Notes: generated by a model from the sequence alone, not told the origin. Shown: positions 24,988 through 31,795, numbered from the stretch's first letter. The stretch is DNA of 32,000 bases from Okeania sp. (GCF_035285525.1 NZ_JAYKGW010000176.1:1-32000); one strand, 5' to 3'. A program made the numbers and translations.

Positions 24988-26118
24988 ATGACAAACACAA
25001 TTTTAAAATCTCAAAAACATCCACTTTCAGAATATATTAATCGCTTAAAATCTGGTCAAGCTCTATTAAAAGATAGCCCAGAAAATGTCTTAGAAGTTGT
25101 GGGAATTTTGAAAAGTTATGGCATTGTTTTAGATGCTTATTCTAAAAATCTTAATTACATTGCCGAATATCAATTTTTAGAAATGTTTCCCTTCTTTAAA
25201 TACTTTAATGGGGAAATTTCAGTAGATAAATATTTCAAGTTTATGTGGCATGACAGAATTAATTTTGAATATGCAGAATATTGCATGAAAGGAATGTTAT
25301 GGCATGGAGGTGGAGGTCTAGATAAATATTTAGATTCAGACCAATTTAAACAATTAGCAAAAGCAGCAATAGATGCCAAAGCTATAGGGAATTTAGTCTT
25401 AATGCCACTTAATAAATTATTTCCAGATTTTTTACCAGATTTGGTACGTCAACAAGCTTACTATAGTGGTTTAGGTCAATTTTGGCGGGTAATGAGTGAT
25501 ATTTTTATGACCTTATCTGATAAATATGACCAAGGTAGAATGACATCTATTCCTCAAGTAGTAGAGCATATTTTATCAGGGTTAGTTGCAGCAGCAAATT
25601 TACCAATTACTTTTGCTGTAAATATTAAAGGTAAACATTATGAAATAATTCCTAAATCAGTAGGTTTAACATTTTTAATGGATACAGCAGTTCCTTATGT
25701 TGAAGCAATTTTTTTCCGAGGAACTCCATTTTTAGGAACAGTTTCTTATAATGCTCAAGCTCAACAAATCAACCCCGATCAAAGTCAATTTACTTATGGT
25801 GCTTTATATGCCGATCCTTTACCTATTGGTGGTGCTGGTATTCCACCTACATTATTAATGCAAGATATGCGACATTTTTTACCAGATTATCTTCTAGAAG
25901 TTTATTACAAAACTAACCGAGGTACAGATAATTTACGAGTGAAAATTTGTGAGACTTTTCAAAAGTCAATGTTCTGTGTCACAACCGCAGCAGTTTTGGG
26001 TTTAGCACCTCATCCTTTAGATACAGAAAACCCAGAGGAACAAGCAGCAAATCAAAGTTATTTAGAATATTGGATGGATAGATTTTTAACATCAAGATTA
26101 CAAGTTGTGAATAGTTAG
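24988..26118 (+). CDS. cupB: CO2 hydration protein of the NDH-1 CO2-uptake complex (CupB/ChpX-type by length and ndhD linkage)
   Basis: 376 aa. The N-terminal LSEYINRLKSGQALLKDSPENVLEVVGILKSYG and the rest match my memory of the ChpX/ChpY family. It is shorter than typical CupA. Confidence 0.8.
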   Translation: MTNTILKSQKHPLSEYINRLKSGQALLKDSPENVLEVVGILKSYGIVLDAYSKNLNYIAEYQFLEMFPFFKYFNGEISVDKYFKFMWHDRINFEYAEYCMKGMLWHGGGGLDKYLDSDQFKQLAKAAIDAKAIGNLVLMPLNKLFPDFLPDLVRQQAYYSGLGQFWRVMSDIFMTLSDKYDQGRMTSIPQVVEHILSGLVAAANLPITFAVNIKGKHYEIIPKSVGLTFLMDTAVPYVEAIFFRGTPFLGTVSYNAQAQQINPDQSQFTYGALYADPLPIGGAGIPPTLLMQDMRHFLPDYLLEVYYKTNRGTDNLRVKICETFQKSMFCVTTAAVLGLAPHPLDTENPEEQAANQSYLEYWMDRFLTSRLQVVNS

Positions 26119-26195
26119 TTATTAGAACTTACGCAAATAAACCCGGTTTATAGGAGAAACCGGGTTTCTAGTTTCCCCTAGCGAAGTCCTGTTAT

Positions 26196-26284
26196 TAGAC
26201 ATCTCCAAAAATTAAAAAGATCATCAATTATTATCTGGAAATAATTAATTACTCCCCCTGTTTCCTCTTTTATGGAGATGTCTA
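26196..26284. mobile_element. TAGACATCTCCA MITE family, copy 3
   Basis: tagacatctccaaaaattaaaaagatcatcaattattatctggaaataattaattactccccc...ttttatggagatgtcta. Confidence 0.8.
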
Positions 26285-26639
26285 TTTGATAATTTCTAAC
26301 AATTATAACTACTTTAGCAATCCTATTTCAAAGGAAGAAGAAAGAAGAAGGAAAAAACCTTTAATAACAAGGAATAAATAATAGAGATAACTATCTAAAA
26401 TTAATGAGAGCAGCTATCTTTTAAAAATTTATGATCGACATCTACCTTTTGTAGCATTCTTTTTTCAAAATGGTATTATGGAGAAACCGAGTTTATGAAC
26501 TATTTTTTTTGGTTTTAACCAAAATATCACGGCAATAAACCCGGTTTCAGTCAAATTAACCATTATCAAAATTCTCACAAATAATTTAGAATTGCTATTC
26601 TATATTTGTCTACCATTCTATTCATAAATAATCAGAAGA

Positions 26640-27671
26640 ATGAATAAGTTAGTCCATTACTTTGAAAGAAATGCTAAATTCATAATAGTCCTGATATTAT
26701 TTCTCTTTTCAGTTGCTTTAATATTCCTTCCTAAACCACCTAAAAATCTAAATGACTGGATATTAATTTTGAATAATATTGGATTTAACCTCTTAGGTGC
26801 TGTAATCGCCTTTTTGGTTTTTCAAGTAATTGTTGAAGGAATAAATAAATTAGGTGAACAACGTGGGGTTAAAATTGATGCTCTAAACAAAGATGATTTT
26901 ATTAAAAAAGTAATCAAGTCTAAGAATACGGTGAGAATTATGGAAACCTGGACTGATTTACTTAGTTCTAATCAATTTTTAACGACTTTTAGTGATGCTA
27001 TAGAAGCATCAGTCAGGAACAATAATACTATATTTGAAATTTTATTACTAAATCCAGAAGATACTTATTTAGTGAAAAGACGTCAAGAAGATTTATCCAA
27101 TAATGAAGATGTTGAAATAAACATTTATCGAAGCATAAGTACAATTCAAAAAATACTCCAAAACTTGGGGAATATGGGTAAAAATTTTCAAGTCAAACTG
27201 TACAGTAGAAATCCATCTCTAGCTATTTACATGAATGACGACGATCTCTTTTTAACTTTTTTTAGAGCTAATCTTAACACTTCTCAGGGAGAGCAGTTAA
27301 AGCTTCCTAGAAACTCAACTATTGGAACGTTTATTATTGAGGAGATGTTTTATGAAATATGGGAAGATACAAAGAATACGAAAGACCTTAACAATATAGT
27401 TTTTTACTGTATTAATATTAACAATAAACTCTATGATGTAAAATATATTTTTCAAGAAAATGTTTTCTATATTCAGAGTTCAGATTTAACAACTGATAGT
27501 ATCAACAACAATATTTTCCAGGACACTATTATTGAGGTAGATGATCAACAATACAAATTAACACCAGAAGCAAAAAGGAAAGAAGATTTACCTCTTAGGG
27601 TTCAAGAACTTTTTGATAATAAATATCCGACAACAGAAGATATTTTCTTTGAATTAATTAAGTTGAGATAG
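26640..27671 (+). CDS. Hypothetical 2-TM membrane protein with a large unassigned cytoplasmic domain
   Basis: 343 aa. Two N-terminal helices (FIIVLILFLFSVALIFL; ILILNNIGFNLLGAVIAFLVFQVIV). The soluble part has alternating beta/alpha-like segments (VRIMETW.., FEILLLNPE.., VKLYSRNPSLAIYMNDDDLFLTFF). The gene is very A+T rich by eye. Confidence 0.7.
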   Translation: MNKLVHYFERNAKFIIVLILFLFSVALIFLPKPPKNLNDWILILNNIGFNLLGAVIAFLVFQVIVEGINKLGEQRGVKIDALNKDDFIKKVIKSKNTVRIMETWTDLLSSNQFLTTFSDAIEASVRNNNTIFEILLLNPEDTYLVKRRQEDLSNNEDVEINIYRSISTIQKILQNLGNMGKNFQVKLYSRNPSLAIYMNDDDLFLTFFRANLNTSQGEQLKLPRNSTIGTFIIEEMFYEIWEDTKNTKDLNNIVFYCININNKLYDVKYIFQENVFYIQSSDLTTDSINNNIFQDTIIEVDDQQYKLTPEAKRKEDLPLRVQELFDNKYPTTEDIFFELIKLR

Positions 27672-27678
27672 ATGAACT

Positions 27679-28986
27679 TCAGCTATCAAGTTCAATTTTT
27701 GAAATATTAATCATCCTTCTAAAATTATCATAGGATTTACCTGAATTAATCAGATAATTTACCTTAGATATACATTCTTGAATCTGTTCTATCAAGTCTT
27801 TTTCTTTTAGTAAAAAAGCATTATTTGCTACAAGTATAGATGCTGCATTGGCAAGAATAAAATCTCTTTTACCTTGGATTTCATAAGTATTTTCATTGGT
27901 TAAAATTCTATAAAATAAATCCCTTTCAGTTTCAATTTCTTTCTGTTCCTCTATTTGGTTTATTGGTACTCTTTTAAGCGAGATATCTTCAGGAGAAAAT
28001 TCCAGTATTTTGATGCTATCTAAATCAATTTTAATCAATAGGTTATTTGGTCTTTCTTCTTGAACATCTCGATAAGCATTTGATATCTCATCTATTCCTT
28101 CGTATGAGTGAACAATTATGCCTGTACTTCCTAGTTCTAAATATATGCCAATCACATAAGGCAGCATCCCTATATGAGATATACCAGTTGTATGGTTAAC
28201 TGGATTTAATAACTGTGCATTTGGAGCTATAATTTTAAATATATCTATTGAAATAGGCAAATCTAAATTTCTCACAGTTGAATGCCAATTATTTTGCTGA
28301 TTCTGATAATTATATTCTAAAGTTTTTAAGTTTTCTTCCCATAATTCTATTCTGGCTTGCTTAAGATTATTGGAGTAAGGAAAACCAAGCTCGCTTAAAG
28401 TAATATATGCAAAATTATACTTTTCTAAACTTTCATTTATAGCCTTGATATCTATCCCTTTTTCATTATACCCAAATGCTTTAATTGCTTGATAGCTTCC
28501 ATGCAAAGAAGTAACATTACCTGTACCAGTTTTACAAATTCTGATTAAAGGTGAAACTATAATTGAAGCCATAGTTGTTGCATGAATTGTTTTGATTAAA
28601 TCTCCTCCACTTCCAAAAGCATGATCGTGTAGTAACAACTTGAGATTATTATTGTTTTTATGAATATGACTTAAGGTCTTATTTCTAACATAATTAGTCA
28701 AAAAGTTTACTTGTCTGAAGCCAACCTTACCATTGCCTGGTGCTATTTCCAAAAGAGTATTTTTTATGCTTTCTACTTCTTCATTTGGATTGATACATTT
28801 CTCAAAATAATTAATCAGCTTTTTGTCACTTATCGGACTAATTATTGCTTCATTTTCTAAGAATTTCCTAAAAACATCTGCTATTGAACCAAGTTTATTT
28901 ATGACTTCATTATTTTTAAGGTTTAATTGCTGAGAATAAAGTAAACGAAAATCTTCTTTTTTTATTGTAATAGTCCGAGGTGTCAT
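27679..28986 (-). CDS. Highly divergent glycosyltransferase-family-3 fold protein (TrpD / thymidine phosphorylase / YbiB-like), orphan
   Basis: 435 aa. HAFGSGGDLIKTIHATTMASIIV..ICKTGTGNVTSLHGSYQAIKAFG parallels TrpD GTGGDG..NISTAAA...KHGNR..SS..GSADVLEALG. FKIIAPNAQLLNP parallels FN.LGPL.NP, IVHSYEGIDEIS parallels VVHG.DGLDEIS, and DFILANAASIL parallels D.VLLNAAAAL. Confidence 0.75.
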   Translation of the reverse strand: MTPRTITIKKEDFRLLYSQQLNLKNNEVINKLGSIADVFRKFLENEAIISPISDKKLINYFEKCINPNEEVESIKNTLLEIAPGNGKVGFRQVNFLTNYVRNKTLSHIHKNNNNLKLLLHDHAFGSGGDLIKTIHATTMASIIVSPLIRICKTGTGNVTSLHGSYQAIKAFGYNEKGIDIKAINESLEKYNFAYITLSELGFPYSNNLKQARIELWEENLKTLEYNYQNQQNNWHSTVRNLDLPISIDIFKIIAPNAQLLNPVNHTTGISHIGMLPYVIGIYLELGSTGIIVHSYEGIDEISNAYRDVQEERPNNLLIKIDLDSIKILEFSPEDISLKRVPINQIEEQKEIETERDLFYRILTNENTYEIQGKRDFILANAASILVANNAFLLKEKDLIEQIQECISKVNYLINSGKSYDNFRRMINISKIELDS

Positions 28987-29137
28987 ATCAACAAATTAAG
29001 TTTAAAGTATTTGATGAAATCTTTATTAAGAGCCACTACAGTGGGAGCATCTTCCTCCAGCACTAGATATTTCTTGTTTCCTGTATACCATTAAGTATGA
29101 AAGTATAATTAACAGAACTTGCCCAAAATATTAAATC

Positions 29138-29256
29138 ACCAAAAAATTAGGGTATGTGCTTCCCCTTTTAAGGAGATGAAAAAAATATTTAACTTCAGCA
29201 TTTTCAACCTCCGAGTTTAGTCGGAGGTTCCCTCTCTACTGATAACTGATAACTGA
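29138..29256. repeat. ~130-bp hairpin + (GATAACT)n repeat, copy 2
   Basis: Aligns with 18964-19100. It contains a perfect 9-bp stem, aacctccga-gtttag-tcggaggtt (29206-29229). Confidence 0.75.
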
Positions 29257-29680
29257 AATAACACACTACTTGTAAAAGTTAACAGTCGTTAACCCCTGCT
29301 AGATATGCTTGTTTTAGGTCAGTCCTGGTTAATTTTATATACAGCTATTTCAGACTAATGATGTACAAGTTTAAAAAGTGAAATTATTGTAGCATAGGCA
29401 TCTTGCCTGTTAGCTGTGTACCTAATAGCAACGGGAAATACTCTAATTATTTAGGGACGGACAAAAAATTATTTAAATATATCTGGAATAACTAACCACC
29501 ATTTAGAAAAATATGTGATAATATGTGCCTCTAGTTATACTCATCATTATAAAAGTGGCCATTAGGATGTATAAATATAATGGTTATAGGTTAGTAATAT
29601 TCTATTCACCAATAACCACACAGGGTACATAGATATATCTGTCTTAATTTAGAGGATTCAATTAAAGTGTTAGGGTTGAT

Positions 29681-31795
29681 ATGAAAAATATATATTCAGA
29701 AAATCGTTTGTTCTTTCTCAAAGGTACCCAAATGGGAAAAAATCTTATGTTGCGTTGGTTACTACCCAGTATACTCAGCGTTTTTGTCTTAGGAGTTCCT
29801 TCTGAAGCAACAACTCTAGAATCTTGGCGCTTTGAACAGGATCGGAACCAATTGTCCTTTACCACACAAGGTGGTGTTCAGCCAAAAGCCCAATTAGTTA
29901 ATAACCCAACTCGATTAATTATAGACTTGCCAGGAACAACTTTAGGTGGTGTCCAGACTTCCCAAGTTGTCGGTGGGGCAATTAAAGCAATTAGAGTAGG
30001 ACAATTTAATCCGGAAACAGCTCGAATAGTAGTAGAACTAAATAATGGTTATACTATTGACCCAAAAGAAGTAGAATTTCAGGGGATTTCTTCTAGCAGA
30101 TGGAATGTACAAATACCAACACCTAAACTAATTACTTCCACTACAAATATTGATATTGCACCTCAGTCTTCTCCCTCACCATCTCAAAATTCCCAACCTT
30201 TACGTCGTCCACCATCTCAAAATTCCCAATCTTCAATTCTACTGCCTCCACGTTCACCCTCTCCTCCTCGCAGAATAGAAAGGTCAATCAATCAAAATAG
30301 ACCAAAACCTAATAATACTCTTTCCTCCAATTCAACTGCTACTAATGGGACATCTACTCTTGTACAAGATATCGAAGTAACAAAAGAGGGAATAGTTCTC
30401 AAAACAAGTGGTAAATTACCAGAAATTGAGCTGAAGCAGAGCAAAGACCGCAACTGGATGACCATTGATGTTCTTAATGCTACTTTAACTATCAAAAATT
30501 TCCAGCAAAATCAAAAGTTTGATGAGTTTGGATTAACAATTACTCGACTAACTCAACATTCAACTTCACCAGCAGTAGTTCGTTTAACAATAAAGTTCCC
30601 AGATAAAAAGACTAAATGGCAAGCTCGTGCTTATATGGGAGGAATAGCATTATGGCCTGAAGGAGAAGCACCACCGACAATTAATCAAGGTACTGGTTTT
30701 GCTCTAATTAACTCTCTGGAATTAAAAAATGGTAATGAATTAGTTATTACTGGAGATAAACCCCTAAATTATACCACTGGTTGGGATTCTGAAACAGATG
30801 CTTATGGAATTACTATATACAATGCTAAGGTAGATAGGCGATTTAGATTACCACCCCAAGAAGTTGGCAGTCCTTTAGTCTGGACAAAAATACGTCAGGA
30901 AGGTCCAGAAACAGTTTCAATTCTGGTTAAACCTGCTACTAACGTTAAAATTGCAGAAGTAACTCAGATTACTCCAGAAAAGTTATCTCTGGCAATGGGT
31001 TGGGGTAGTATCGGGAATGCACCTCCGGGTTGGAAGCCAAATCCTAGACCAGAATCTTCTAATACGAGACCTTCACCATTTCCCAGGAGAGAAAATTCAC
31101 CGCCTCAAAATTCTCGTGGAAACACTACTACAACGAGAAGATGGCCTTTCCCTCCCCCTCGTCGCAATACTCAACAGCCTAATACTAATAATAGTAGTTC
31201 TAATTCTCGTTTTGCCTTGCCTAATCAACTACCTCGACGTAATGGACGATTATTGATAGTGATAGACCCCGGACATGGGGGACCGACTGATTTGGGTGGG
31301 GTTGGTTTTAATGGTATACGGGAAAAGGATATTGTGTTGCCTATTTCATTAGAGGTAGCTAAAATTCTGGAGCAGAATAATATACAGGTGCTTCTGACTC
31401 GGGAGACAGACCGGGATTTGGATTTGCCACCACGAGCAGAATTTGCTAATCGGGTAGGAGCAGATTTATTTGTGAGTATTCATGCTAATGCTATTAGTAT
31501 GAGTCGTCCTGATGTAAATGGTTTAGAGACTTTTTATTATGAAAGTGGACTTGTTTTAGCACAGTATATTCAGAATAGTATGTTGCAAGCTTTTCCGACT
31601 ATGAATAATCGTGGTGTGAAGCAAGCCCGTTTTTATGTATTAAGAAAGACTGAGATGACTGCTGCTTTGGTAGAGGTCGGTTTTGTTACTGGTAATTATG
31701 ATTGGAGGATACTTGCAGATCCTGCTCAACGTAGTCGGATGGCGCAGGCGATCGCTCGTGGCATATTAGAATATGTTAAAGCTTATTCTCGATAA
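29681..31795 (+). CDS. amiC: N-acetylmuramoyl-L-alanine amidase, AmiC-type, with N-terminal AMIN domains (cell-wall/septal amidase)
   Basis: The C-terminal Amidase_3 domain has LIVIDPGHGG, FVSIHANA and ALVEVGFVTG. N-terminal AMIN modules (e.g. LESWRFEQDRNQLSFTT...RLIIDLPG...IKAIRVGQF...ARIVVEL) are separated by Pro/Ser/Asn/Gln-rich linkers. The real start is more likely the ATG at 29732 (MGKNLMLRWLLPSILSVFVLGVPSEA signal peptide). Confidence 0.88.
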   Translation: MKNIYSENRLFFLKGTQMGKNLMLRWLLPSILSVFVLGVPSEATTLESWRFEQDRNQLSFTTQGGVQPKAQLVNNPTRLIIDLPGTTLGGVQTSQVVGGAIKAIRVGQFNPETARIVVELNNGYTIDPKEVEFQGISSSRWNVQIPTPKLITSTTNIDIAPQSSPSPSQNSQPLRRPPSQNSQSSILLPPRSPSPPRRIERSINQNRPKPNNTLSSNSTATNGTSTLVQDIEVTKEGIVLKTSGKLPEIELKQSKDRNWMTIDVLNATLTIKNFQQNQKFDEFGLTITRLTQHSTSPAVVRLTIKFPDKKTKWQARAYMGGIALWPEGEAPPTINQGTGFALINSLELKNGNELVITGDKPLNYTTGWDSETDAYGITIYNAKVDRRFRLPPQEVGSPLVWTKIRQEGPETVSILVKPATNVKIAEVTQITPEKLSLAMGWGSIGNAPPGWKPNPRPESSNTRPSPFPRRENSPPQNSRGNTTTTRRWPFPPPRRNTQQPNTNNSSSNSRFALPNQLPRRNGRLLIVIDPGHGGPTDLGGVGFNGIREKDIVLPISLEVAKILEQNNIQVLLTRETDRDLDLPPRAEFANRVGADLFVSIHANAISMSRPDVNGLETFYYESGLVLAQYIQNSMLQAFPTMNNRGVKQARFYVLRKTEMTAALVEVGFVTGNYDWRILADPAQRSRMAQAIARGILEYVKAYSR

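Follow-up and report, generated by a model that had tools for sequence, protein, structure and literature searches.

To our knowledge, the fold shared by TrpD and the NP-II family is known for three activities only, namely anthranilate phosphoribosyl transfer, phosphorolysis of nucleosides or nucleotides, and the binding of nucleic acids by YbiB. The ybiB gene sits with dinG under LexA, and the adjacency of dinG and ybiB was also seen in this work. For TrpD, the anthranilate phosphoribosyltransferase (AnPRT), a review lists the contacts with phosphoribosyl pyrophosphate (PRPP) and Mg2+ as well as those with anthranilate in the numbering of the Mycobacterium tuberculosis (Mtb) enzyme, and assigns to the GTGGD loop the binding of the 5'-phosphate of PRPP; TrpD2/YbiB proteins are described there as lacking the PRPP-binding motif (PMC9835598). 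Here we describe P0001, an enzyme with the TrpD fold from an uncharacterised clade, together with its convergently encoded neighbour P0002, from a stretch of 32,000 nucleotides of Okeania sp. (GCF_035285525.1 NZ_JAYKGW010000176.1:1-32000; hereafter the window). The donor site of P0001 is essentially kept and its acceptor pocket rebuilt, and in cyanobacteria its gene is accompanied by that of P0002, which looks like a membrane-tethered ligand-binding protein. The coordinates of both genes and their parts are collected in Table 1.

P0001 is matched by PF00591 with 47.9 bits against a gathering cut-off of 27 (E 1.8e-12, Pfam). An AlphaFold model built from an alignment of 26 family sequences (pLDDT 88.8, pTM 0.91) superposes on M. 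tuberculosis TrpD (4OWO) with Z 34.9 and a root mean square deviation of 3.3 Å over 333 residues, and more than 40 TrpD entries superpose on model residues 44-434 with Z values of 30-35. Both the N-terminal helical and the C-terminal alpha/beta domain superpose on solved members of the superfamily. Sequence identity to solved TrpDs amounts to 14-22 %, and the TrpD-like fold is confirmed to be far beyond chance resemblance. A preliminary description of this DNA, made from the sequence alone, had pointed to a lengthened N-terminal region, and the extension is real: the structural match to TrpD begins at model residues 44-48, and GSGGD stands at residue 125 where the genome's own TrpD has GTGGD at residue 91, which corresponds to an extra length of about 35-45 aa. 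The last helix of TrpD coincides with the end of P0001 (residue 434).

The residue map of the active site was derived from HMMER alignments to solved TrpDs and from a MAFFT alignment with the genome's own TrpD, E. coli TrpD, YbiB and DeoA (alignment A3), with the residue roles taken from PMC9835598. The correspondences to TrpD motifs proposed earlier are reproduced both by the HMMER alignments and by MAFFT with the two TrpDs. GSGGD for GTGGD lies within HDHAFGSGGD (residues 120-129), H-A-TT for N-x-ST within KTIHATT (132-138), KTGTGN for KHGNR within CKTGTGN (151-157), and the metal-binding motif GIDEIS, described as kept, at residues 297-302; the Asn/Gln-rich insertion is LEYNYQNQQNNWHSTVRNL at residues 223-241. 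The quoted motifs are invariant or nearly so across the 26 family members (alignment A1). The proposal that SIDIFK replaces an anthranilate-binding RTxFN segment stands in part: the string occupies the place of RTxFN at residues 246-251, but the arginine that binds anthranilate in TrpD is not the one in RTxFN; it lies six residues upstream of that segment and aligns with the retained R212.

Among the PRPP and Mg2+ contacts, the 5'-phosphate loop Mtb G107-D111 is kept as G125-D129, as are T120 (T138), K135 (K152), S142/S143 (T159/S160) and the Mg2+ ligands D251/E252 (D299/E300, invariant), and the Mg1 ligand S119 is conservatively replaced by T137. Changed positions are N117 (H135), H136 (T153) and N138, a contact of anthranilate and ribose, which is replaced by the family-invariant T155, with KHGN reading KTGT. 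R193 of helix alpha8, which binds the anthranilate carboxylate and within the VRR/LRR stretch of TrpDs is the first of the two Arg, is kept as the invariant R212; its equivalent is also conserved in YbiB and DeoA (alignment A3). RTxFN becomes (I/L)-D248-x-x-K251 in the family, and D248 and K251 are conserved throughout the larger 47-row clade described below. The insertion follows R212, is 26-29 aa long family-wide and falls into a gap in all TrpDs and sister subclades; the abundance of Asn and Gln in it is peculiar to this genome, which is AT-rich, and pLDDT is about 70 at residues 240-260. Judged from these aligned positions, the PRPP/Mg2+ donor site of P0001 is essentially intact and the acceptor pocket rebuilt, and the retention of the donor contacts with replacement of N138 and H136 fits a PRPP-type enzyme that is active but uses another acceptor.

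Five further residues, H120, H122, H135, C151 and H265 (window 28192-28629), are invariant in the family and absent from TrpD and the sister subclades. H120 and H122, both family-specific, directly precede the GSGGD loop, and the family-only His and Cys residues sit on or beside the strands that bear the active-site loops. From their placement they might form a metal site.

P0001 is clearly set apart from TrpD. Its score with the TrpD equivalog model TIGR01245 is 76.1 bits against a curated cut-off of 199 bits. The genome (6.5 Mb, 97 % complete) carries one canonical trpD, which scores 395 bits and lies on another contig (C171), and no PF00591 gene was found in it besides this trpD and P0001. 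No trp genes occur near P0001. In a maximum likelihood tree of 84 superfamily members (quick IQ-TREE run, LG+G4) the P0001 family forms a clade with support 100, nested in a clade of 47 rows (SH-aLRT 99, branch length 0.52), to which neither the genome's own TrpD nor that of E. coli belongs. The score, the canonical trpD elsewhere and the separate clade bear out the preliminary description, which had set P0001 apart from the tryptophan-pathway enzyme and had asked after a canonical trpD elsewhere in the genome and a phylogeny. Several family members carry the source label 'anthranilate phosphoribosyltransferase', which is very likely wrong. YbiB also lies outside the supported clade, on a long branch of unsure placement, and neither the YbiB model NF006005 nor the NP-II models (TIGR02644, NF004490 and others) match P0001 at E<=1. 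Where the P0001 family has FGSGGD, YbiB has SYNGAR (alignment A3). The C-terminal alpha/beta domain of NP-II enzymes is absent from P0001, and DeoA is about 100 residues longer (A3). The isoelectric point was considered as an indicator of YbiB-like proteins and does not discriminate (P0001 6.1, YbiB 6.4, own TrpD 6.3).

The partner protein P0002 consists of two predicted transmembrane (TM) helices, a long helix that joins them to a phospholipase D (PLD)-like alpha/beta domain, and a small C-terminal barrel. The PLD-like domain matches TrmBL2 (Z 12.6), SauUSI (12.1), the DUF1669 domain of FAM83 (11.8-12.1), NucT (11.8), TrmB (11.0-11.1) and Nuc, with an overall range of Z 10-12.6 (VIA-align), and the barrel matches HutZ (Z 8.8) and other split-barrel proteins that bind flavin mononucleotide (Z 6-7). 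The sole His of P0002 is at position 6, outside the PLD-like domain, and P0002 can therefore not be an enzyme of the HKD type. P0002 has no Pfam match, but homologues approach the 23.5-bit cut-off of DUF5919 (PF19319), with 22.8 bits for P0122, 17.1 for P0121 and 21.1 for the protein of locus L050. DUF5919 occurs in about 20 % of the members of the nearest ESM Atlas clusters (structure TM 0.81), and the same list includes proteins fused to a helix-turn-helix (HTH) and to TIR-like domains. P0002 itself contains neither a DNA-binding domain nor a transporter-like membrane part, only the two TM helices. The DUF5919-like profile (A7) has no significant match among PDB sequences, and DUF5919 is not mentioned in the papers of the searched library. 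By its predicted architecture P0002 looks like a membrane-tethered ligand-binding protein. A predicted complex of P0001 with soluble P0002 scored 0.00, a value that weighs neither for nor against binding. No terminator was found between the convergent genes; promoter matches are many in this AT-rich sequence and are uninformative. A scan of 26000-29800 against Rfam at E<=1 returned one chance-level match and no riboswitch upstream of either gene.

The two genes are tightly coupled. A P0002-type gene adjoins the enzyme gene in convergent orientation in seven cyanobacterial loci and in G201 and G272, with P0002 homologues in this position in Scytonema, Waterburya and Mastigocladopsis and with flanks that differ from locus to locus. 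In Dolichospermum (L002:9321-10620) the partner gene is split into open reading frames (ORFs) of 293 and 129 aa, and in Dulcicalothrix (L010:9324-9500) only a C-terminal remnant of 59 aa is left. The enzyme gene is present in three of 401 sampled cyanobacterial genomes, and these are exactly the three with a strong match to P0002 (E <1e-120), adjacent and convergent in each (Fisher p = 9e-8 for the co-occurrence, related genomes not being independent). In two Chloroflexota loci the neighbours of the enzyme gene include distant DUF5919-like relatives with other N-termini, in one locus as a soluble protein encoded directly upstream and co-directionally, in the other as a TM-anchored protein encoded 2 kb downstream. 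Housekeeping, signalling or toxin-antitoxin genes flank the cassette in the window as well as in Dolichospermum and Scytonema.

The family is rare and sporadic. About 30 clusters (90 % identity) match P0001 over its full length among 5.8 billion clustered proteins, and 10 matches fall below 1e-30 among 1.84 billion representatives at 50 % identity. The hosts that carry a name belong to the cyanobacteria (filamentous and pleurocapsalean forms), to the Chloroflexota, among them Ktedonobacteria, and to the Polyangiales, Sorangium included. In 40 relatives of the host, of which 11 share its genus, a search for the gene was negative. The interval between chpX and amiC is a variable slot, in which a congener holds a gene for a GAF-GGDEF diguanylate cyclase and not the cassette. 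The G+C content of the segment 26124-29462 is 0.29, compared with 0.36 for the window; as evidence for transfer this is weak, as the third-position values of P0001 and P0002 (0.20-0.24) resemble those of chpX and amiC (0.17-0.24). An imperfect direct repeat of 20 nt (85 %; 26615-26634 and 29599-29618) brackets both genes but was not taken as an insertion scar, because four other chance-level repeats in this AT-rich stretch are equal to it. In Mastigocladopsis (L033:3145-4912) the cassette is immediately preceded by genes for a phage integrase, a Tn3 transposase fragment and a DUF4158 protein; a patatin gene lies farther out on that side and a DUF3854 gene on the downstream side, a setting that suggests mobility there. 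Decay is seen in Calothrix PCC 7103 (L026:7144-7911), where about 255 aa of the enzyme remain, and P0004 from another assembly (300 aa, 83 % identical to P0001 residues 1-283) probably represents a copy in a close relative that has been truncated or broken.

We interpret the pair as follows. P0001 would be a catalytically competent Mg2+/PRPP phosphoribosyltransferase of a TrpD-derived clade and not a tryptophan enzyme; with its acceptor pocket rebuilt and its donor site intact, it should transfer phosphoribose to an acceptor other than anthranilate. It would form the small-molecule-producing half of a rigid two-gene cassette, in which the non-catalytic PLD/TrmB-like domain of P0002 would bind the product of P0001 or, less likely, its substrate, and P0002 would convert ligand binding into a membrane output. 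The cassette may be a rare, horizontally moving accessory module, and analogy with systems composed of a synthase and an effector makes signalling in conflict, defence or stress its most likely role. The constant adjacency in cyanobacteria of the enzyme to a membrane-anchored, predicted ligand-binding protein suggests such a two-gene small-molecule module, so far undescribed. That P0001 makes a phosphoribosylated ligand which P0002 reads at the membrane, within a mobile accessory signalling module of possibly defence type, is the explanation we tentatively prefer, with somewhat less than even confidence.

The derived K-x-G-T and D-x-x-K motifs are common to the whole 47-row clade, whose members occur in several other gene contexts. 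In a sister subclade, represented by four metagenomic loci, the enzyme gene overlaps a downstream partner gene, the product of which carries a conserved C-terminal domain behind two TM helices (L039/L040, L038) or a TIR domain (L041). The partners in L040:2118-3979, L039:259-2120 and L038:401-1917 consist of two TM helices and a coiled coil ahead of the C-terminal domain that also occurs in the TIR fusion, a domain with the motifs NAP..YE and YYPIFS, and in L040 a gene for an EEP-family nuclease/phosphatase follows. In L041:967-3570 (JAAUYB010071136.1) the TrpD-like gene overlaps the TIR-fusion gene, which is followed by a 123-aa ORF matching the N-terminus of Macro-type ThsA (PADLOC); this locus is a candidate defence operon. 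With PADLOC-DB 2.0, no family matches P0035, P0122 or the sister-clade enzymes, and only the TIR part of P0126 and the ThsA-like neighbour are recognised. The common denominator of the clade is an intact PRPP/Mg2+ site, a new acceptor pocket and coupling to receptor- or regulator-like proteins. One may go further and see in the cassette and the TIR/2TM sister operons a new class of signalling immune or abortive-infection systems, with a phosphoribosylated second messenger made from PRPP by a TrpD-derived enzyme, a PLD-like (DUF5919-type) receptor and a membrane or NADase effector; we consider this broader proposal quite unlikely at present.

In four other cyanobacteria a DUF5919-like protein, fused to two TM helices or to a soluble N-terminal domain, has downstream of it an unannotated protein of about 245 aa, homologous in all four. 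The latter has invariant Glu and His motifs, is without a Pfam, NCBIfam or PDB sequence match (profile A8), and may resemble heme-oxygenase-like di-iron enzymes. The receptor-like domain thus has partners among at least two kinds of presumed small-molecule enzymes. A conserved cluster in Ktedonobacteria and Chloroflexia contains a divergent gene for a STAND protein with XRE-HTH, NB-ARC and WD40 parts (about 1200 aa), a sigma70-region-2-like gene (about 220-230 aa) and the TrpD-like gene. In L043 (286-1611 and 4775-5929) P0061, which has an N-terminal extension, is followed by a TM-anchored, all-helical protein of 384 aa, and the locus is flanked by a DUF3644 / EC042_2821 restriction-endonuclease-like gene. 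For the sister-clade representatives P0046, P0050, P0056 and P0051, short contigs reveal little of the gene context.

Several observations weigh against the reading of P0001 and P0002 as a messenger-forming enzyme and its membrane receptor, possibly in defence. Defence operons rarely have convergent genes, the window has no known defence gene beside the cassette, and none of the families of PADLOC-DB 2.0 matches P0001 or P0002. A literature search for links of TrpD-like proteins to phage defence or to TIR partners found none. The plasmid collection gave no match in tblastn searches with P0001 and P0125, and none was found in viral contigs scanned with the sister-clade profile. The model of P0002 is of moderate quality (pLDDT 70). 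Comparison by hhalign of the P0002-type domain (A2 and the wider A7) with the C-terminal domain of the sister partners (A6) gave a probability below 1 %, and the analogy to these partners is only architectural because homology to the P0002 domain is not detectable. Retention of R212 leaves room for a carboxylate-bearing, anthranilate-like acceptor. About 12 loci in Ktedonobacteria and Chloroflexia hold the enzyme without a P0002 partner and with the sigma70-region-2-like gene upstream, and in three Ktedonobacterales loci a nucleobase-type NCS1 permease is encoded directly downstream and co-directionally, an arrangement that looks metabolic or regulatory. Copies in Polyangiales adjoin genes for LysR and RidA, LysR being divergent in one locus, or for a DAO-type oxidase.

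These contexts lead to the strongest rival, in which P0001 phosphoribosylates an imported heterocyclic base in regulated salvage or detoxification, and its neighbours sense or regulate this without an immune role. The downstream permease is of the cytosine/purine/uracil/allantoin type, the sigma70_r2-like gene stands directly upstream in 12 loci, and the divergent LysR regulator as well as the upstream soluble DUF5919-like protein of the Chloroflexota locus (the RHH-like-DUF5919 type occurring among neighbours) fit a regulated pathway; the resemblance of P0002 to the sugar-binding effector domain of TrmB, the intact PRPP site and the retained R212 are equally in line with it. However, the cyanobacterial cassette has no permease and its partner neither a DNA-binding domain nor a transporter-like membrane part, the gene is very sporadic (3 of 401 cyanobacterial genomes), and the TIR-fused partners of the sister subclade do not fit. 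Salvage or detoxification is in our view unlikely, if a serious competitor of the preferred reading.

An improbable alternative turns the roles around: P0001 would itself be the effector, depleting a nucleotide or NAD-like metabolite by degradative pyrophosphorolysis or phosphorolysis, and P0002 its sensor or inhibitor. Thymidine and AMP phosphorylases of the same superfamily cleave N-glycosidic bonds, nucleotide-depleting defence effectors are known, and the tight co-occurrence of P0001 and P0002 would agree with such an arrangement. Yet the TIR and 2TM modules of the sister partners are of a killing type and would make a second effector redundant, the invariant Mg2+/pyrophosphate ligands favour PRPP over phosphate chemistry, and P0002 contains no recognisable phage-sensing module.

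A role in the tailoring of natural products, by N- or C-ribosylation of a secondary metabolite, is still less probable. In its favour, Nostocales, Ktedonobacteria and Sorangium make many natural products, YcaO, halogenase-like and LodA-like genes are found near the copy in Sorangium, and the related representative P0053 shares an operon with genes for an SDR protein, a SET protein and a GHMP kinase; however, biosynthetic core genes are not conserved beside the family, and the flanks in the window, Dolichospermum and Scytonema are of the housekeeping, signalling or toxin-antitoxin kinds.

The preliminary description had offered a non-catalytic, nucleic-acid-binding TrpD2/YbiB-like protein as an alternative, and the shared fold superfamily and the low TrpD score are compatible with it; this has become highly improbable, as GSGGD, K152 and D299/E300 are invariant in the family whereas TrpD2 lacks the PRPP motif (PMC9835598), the YbiB model finds no match and the supported clade excludes YbiB. 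A second, divergent AnPRT isozyme for tryptophan synthesis, for which the retained R212 and PRPP site might speak, is hardly credible given the score of 76 against 199 bits, the canonical trpD in the same genome, the loss of the N138 equivalent, the separate clade, the lack of trp genes nearby and the presence in only 3 of 401 cyanobacterial genomes.

Table 1. Positions of the described features in the window, and loci of two related gene contexts (coordinates beginning with L refer to other loci)
Feature	Coordinates	Strand	Basis
P0001, 435-aa TrpD-fold (Glycos_transf_3) enzyme of an uncharacterised clade	27679..28986	-	Open ORF, PF00591, model, family alignment
N-terminal extension of P0001, residues 1-44, one strand and three helices preceding the TrpD-like helical domain	28855..28986	-	Structural alignment, model secondary structure
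HDHAFGSGGD, residues 120-129, PRPP 5'-phosphate loop, equivalent to TrpD GTGGD	28600..28629	-	Alignments, PMC9835598
KTIHATT, residues 132-138, pyrophosphate/Mg1 helix end	28573..28593	-	Alignments, PMC9835598
CKTGTGNVTS, residues 151-160	28507..28536	-	Alignments, PMC9835598
Invariant R212, counterpart of Mtb R193, the Arg that binds the anthranilate carboxylate in TrpD	28351..28353	-	Alignments
26-aa insertion specific to the family (residues 221-246), adjoining the acceptor channel; W234 conserved	28249..28326	-	Gap in TrpDs
D248-K251 (DIFK), replacing TrpD (R/P)TxFN and likewise adjoining the acceptor channel	28234..28245	-	Alignments
I298-D299-E300, Mg2+ ligands (Mtb D251/E252), invariant	28087..28095	-	Alignments, PMC9835598
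P0002, 343-aa partner with two TM helices, coiled coil, PLD/TrmB-like (DUF5919-like) domain and small barrel	26640..27671	+	ORF, predicted fold
Two predicted membrane helices of P0002, residues ~14-30 and 40-64	26676..26831	+	Hydrophobic stretches; low-pLDDT model helices
PLD-like alpha/beta domain of P0002, residues 76-253, without HKD motif	26865..27398	+	VIA-align
C-terminal beta-rich, split-barrel-like domain of P0002, residues 254-343	27399..27668	+	Moderate-confidence model
Spacer of 7 nt between the convergent stop codons	27672..27678	.	Terminator scan negative
Segment without counterpart in a relative of the same genus, cassette and flanks	26124..29462	.	Comparison with L049:2819-6632
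Loci with DUF5919-like protein and ~245-aa protein	L050:5607-7536, L052:5603-7354, L051:5137-6809, L053:5698-7352		
Loci with STAND, sigma-like and TrpD-like genes	L012-L022, L025, L027, L035; NCS1 permease follows in L013, L014, L027		

The analysis defines a fourth, well-separated clade of the fold, comprising about 47 clusters at 50 % identity with an intact PRPP site and a rebuilt acceptor site. In the cyanobacterial branch the enzyme is tied to a non-catalytic PLD-like protein anchored in the membrane, in other branches to TIR- or 2TM-fused proteins, and a TrpD-derived subfamily with a dedicated receptor-like partner, uncharacterised so far, is what is new here. P0001 and P0002 are a concrete candidate for a signalling pair of enzyme and receptor of a new type, one that lends itself to testing, and they give a first entry point to the function of DUF5919. 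Should the product prove to be a PRPP-derived messenger, it would represent a new chemical class of bacterial signal; if the immune reading is true, PRPP chemistry and a new sensor fold would join the nucleotide-derived immune signals; and if base salvage is true, P0001 would still have a new phosphoribosyltransferase specificity.

In comparison with TrpD (AnPRT; TIGR01245; 4OWO/1ZVW, S. solfataricus 1ZYK), P0001 shares the two-domain fold, the GTGGD loop as GSGGD, the Lys of strand beta2, the Ser/Thr pairs of helix alpha5 and of the beta2-alpha6 segment, the Asp-Glu ligands and the Arg of helix alpha8. It differs by T for H136, T for N138, H for N117 and (I/L)DxxK for RTxFN, by the 26-aa insertion, the N-terminal extension and the invariant H120, H122, C151 and H265, and in that its gene is unlinked to trp genes, a rare accessory, and provided with a dedicated partner gene. 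With TrpD2/YbiB (E. coli YbiB, NF006005) it has in common the fold superfamily and that neither is a tryptophan enzyme; YbiB is without the PRPP motif and binds nucleic acids, whereas the P0001 family keeps the PRPP/Mg2+ residues invariant. The NP-II family resembles P0001 in its core of an alpha and an alpha/beta domain, R212 aligns with an Arg of E. coli DeoA, and H122 with the His of the KHSTGG stretch of the same enzyme (A3). Unlike NP-II enzymes, P0001 is without the C-terminal alpha/beta 'hammerhead' domain and keeps the Asp-Glu Mg2+ ligands.

Pycsar (PycC with PycTM or PycTIR), CBASS and Thoeris resemble the cassette in joining an enzyme acting on a nucleotide-type precursor to a partner with a putative ligand domain and two TM helices, in the TIR- or 2TM-fused partners of the sister subclade, and in the sporadic accessory distribution. 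They differ in that P0001 has the TrpD fold and is not a cyclase, CD-NTase or TIR protein, in that the presumed sensor is PLD-like or DUF5919-like and not a cyclic-nucleotide-binding (cNMP), SAVED, SLOG or Macro domain, and in the convergent gene order in cyanobacteria without a PADLOC match. The effector domain of TrmB, DUF5919 (PF19319) and the DUF1669 domain of FAM83 are the closest counterparts of P0002, whose PLD-like domain is likewise without an HKD motif and, as in the sugar-binding domain of TrmB, has a small barrel behind it; in place of the 2-TM N-terminus of P0002, an HTH is found in TrmB and most DUF5919 proteins.

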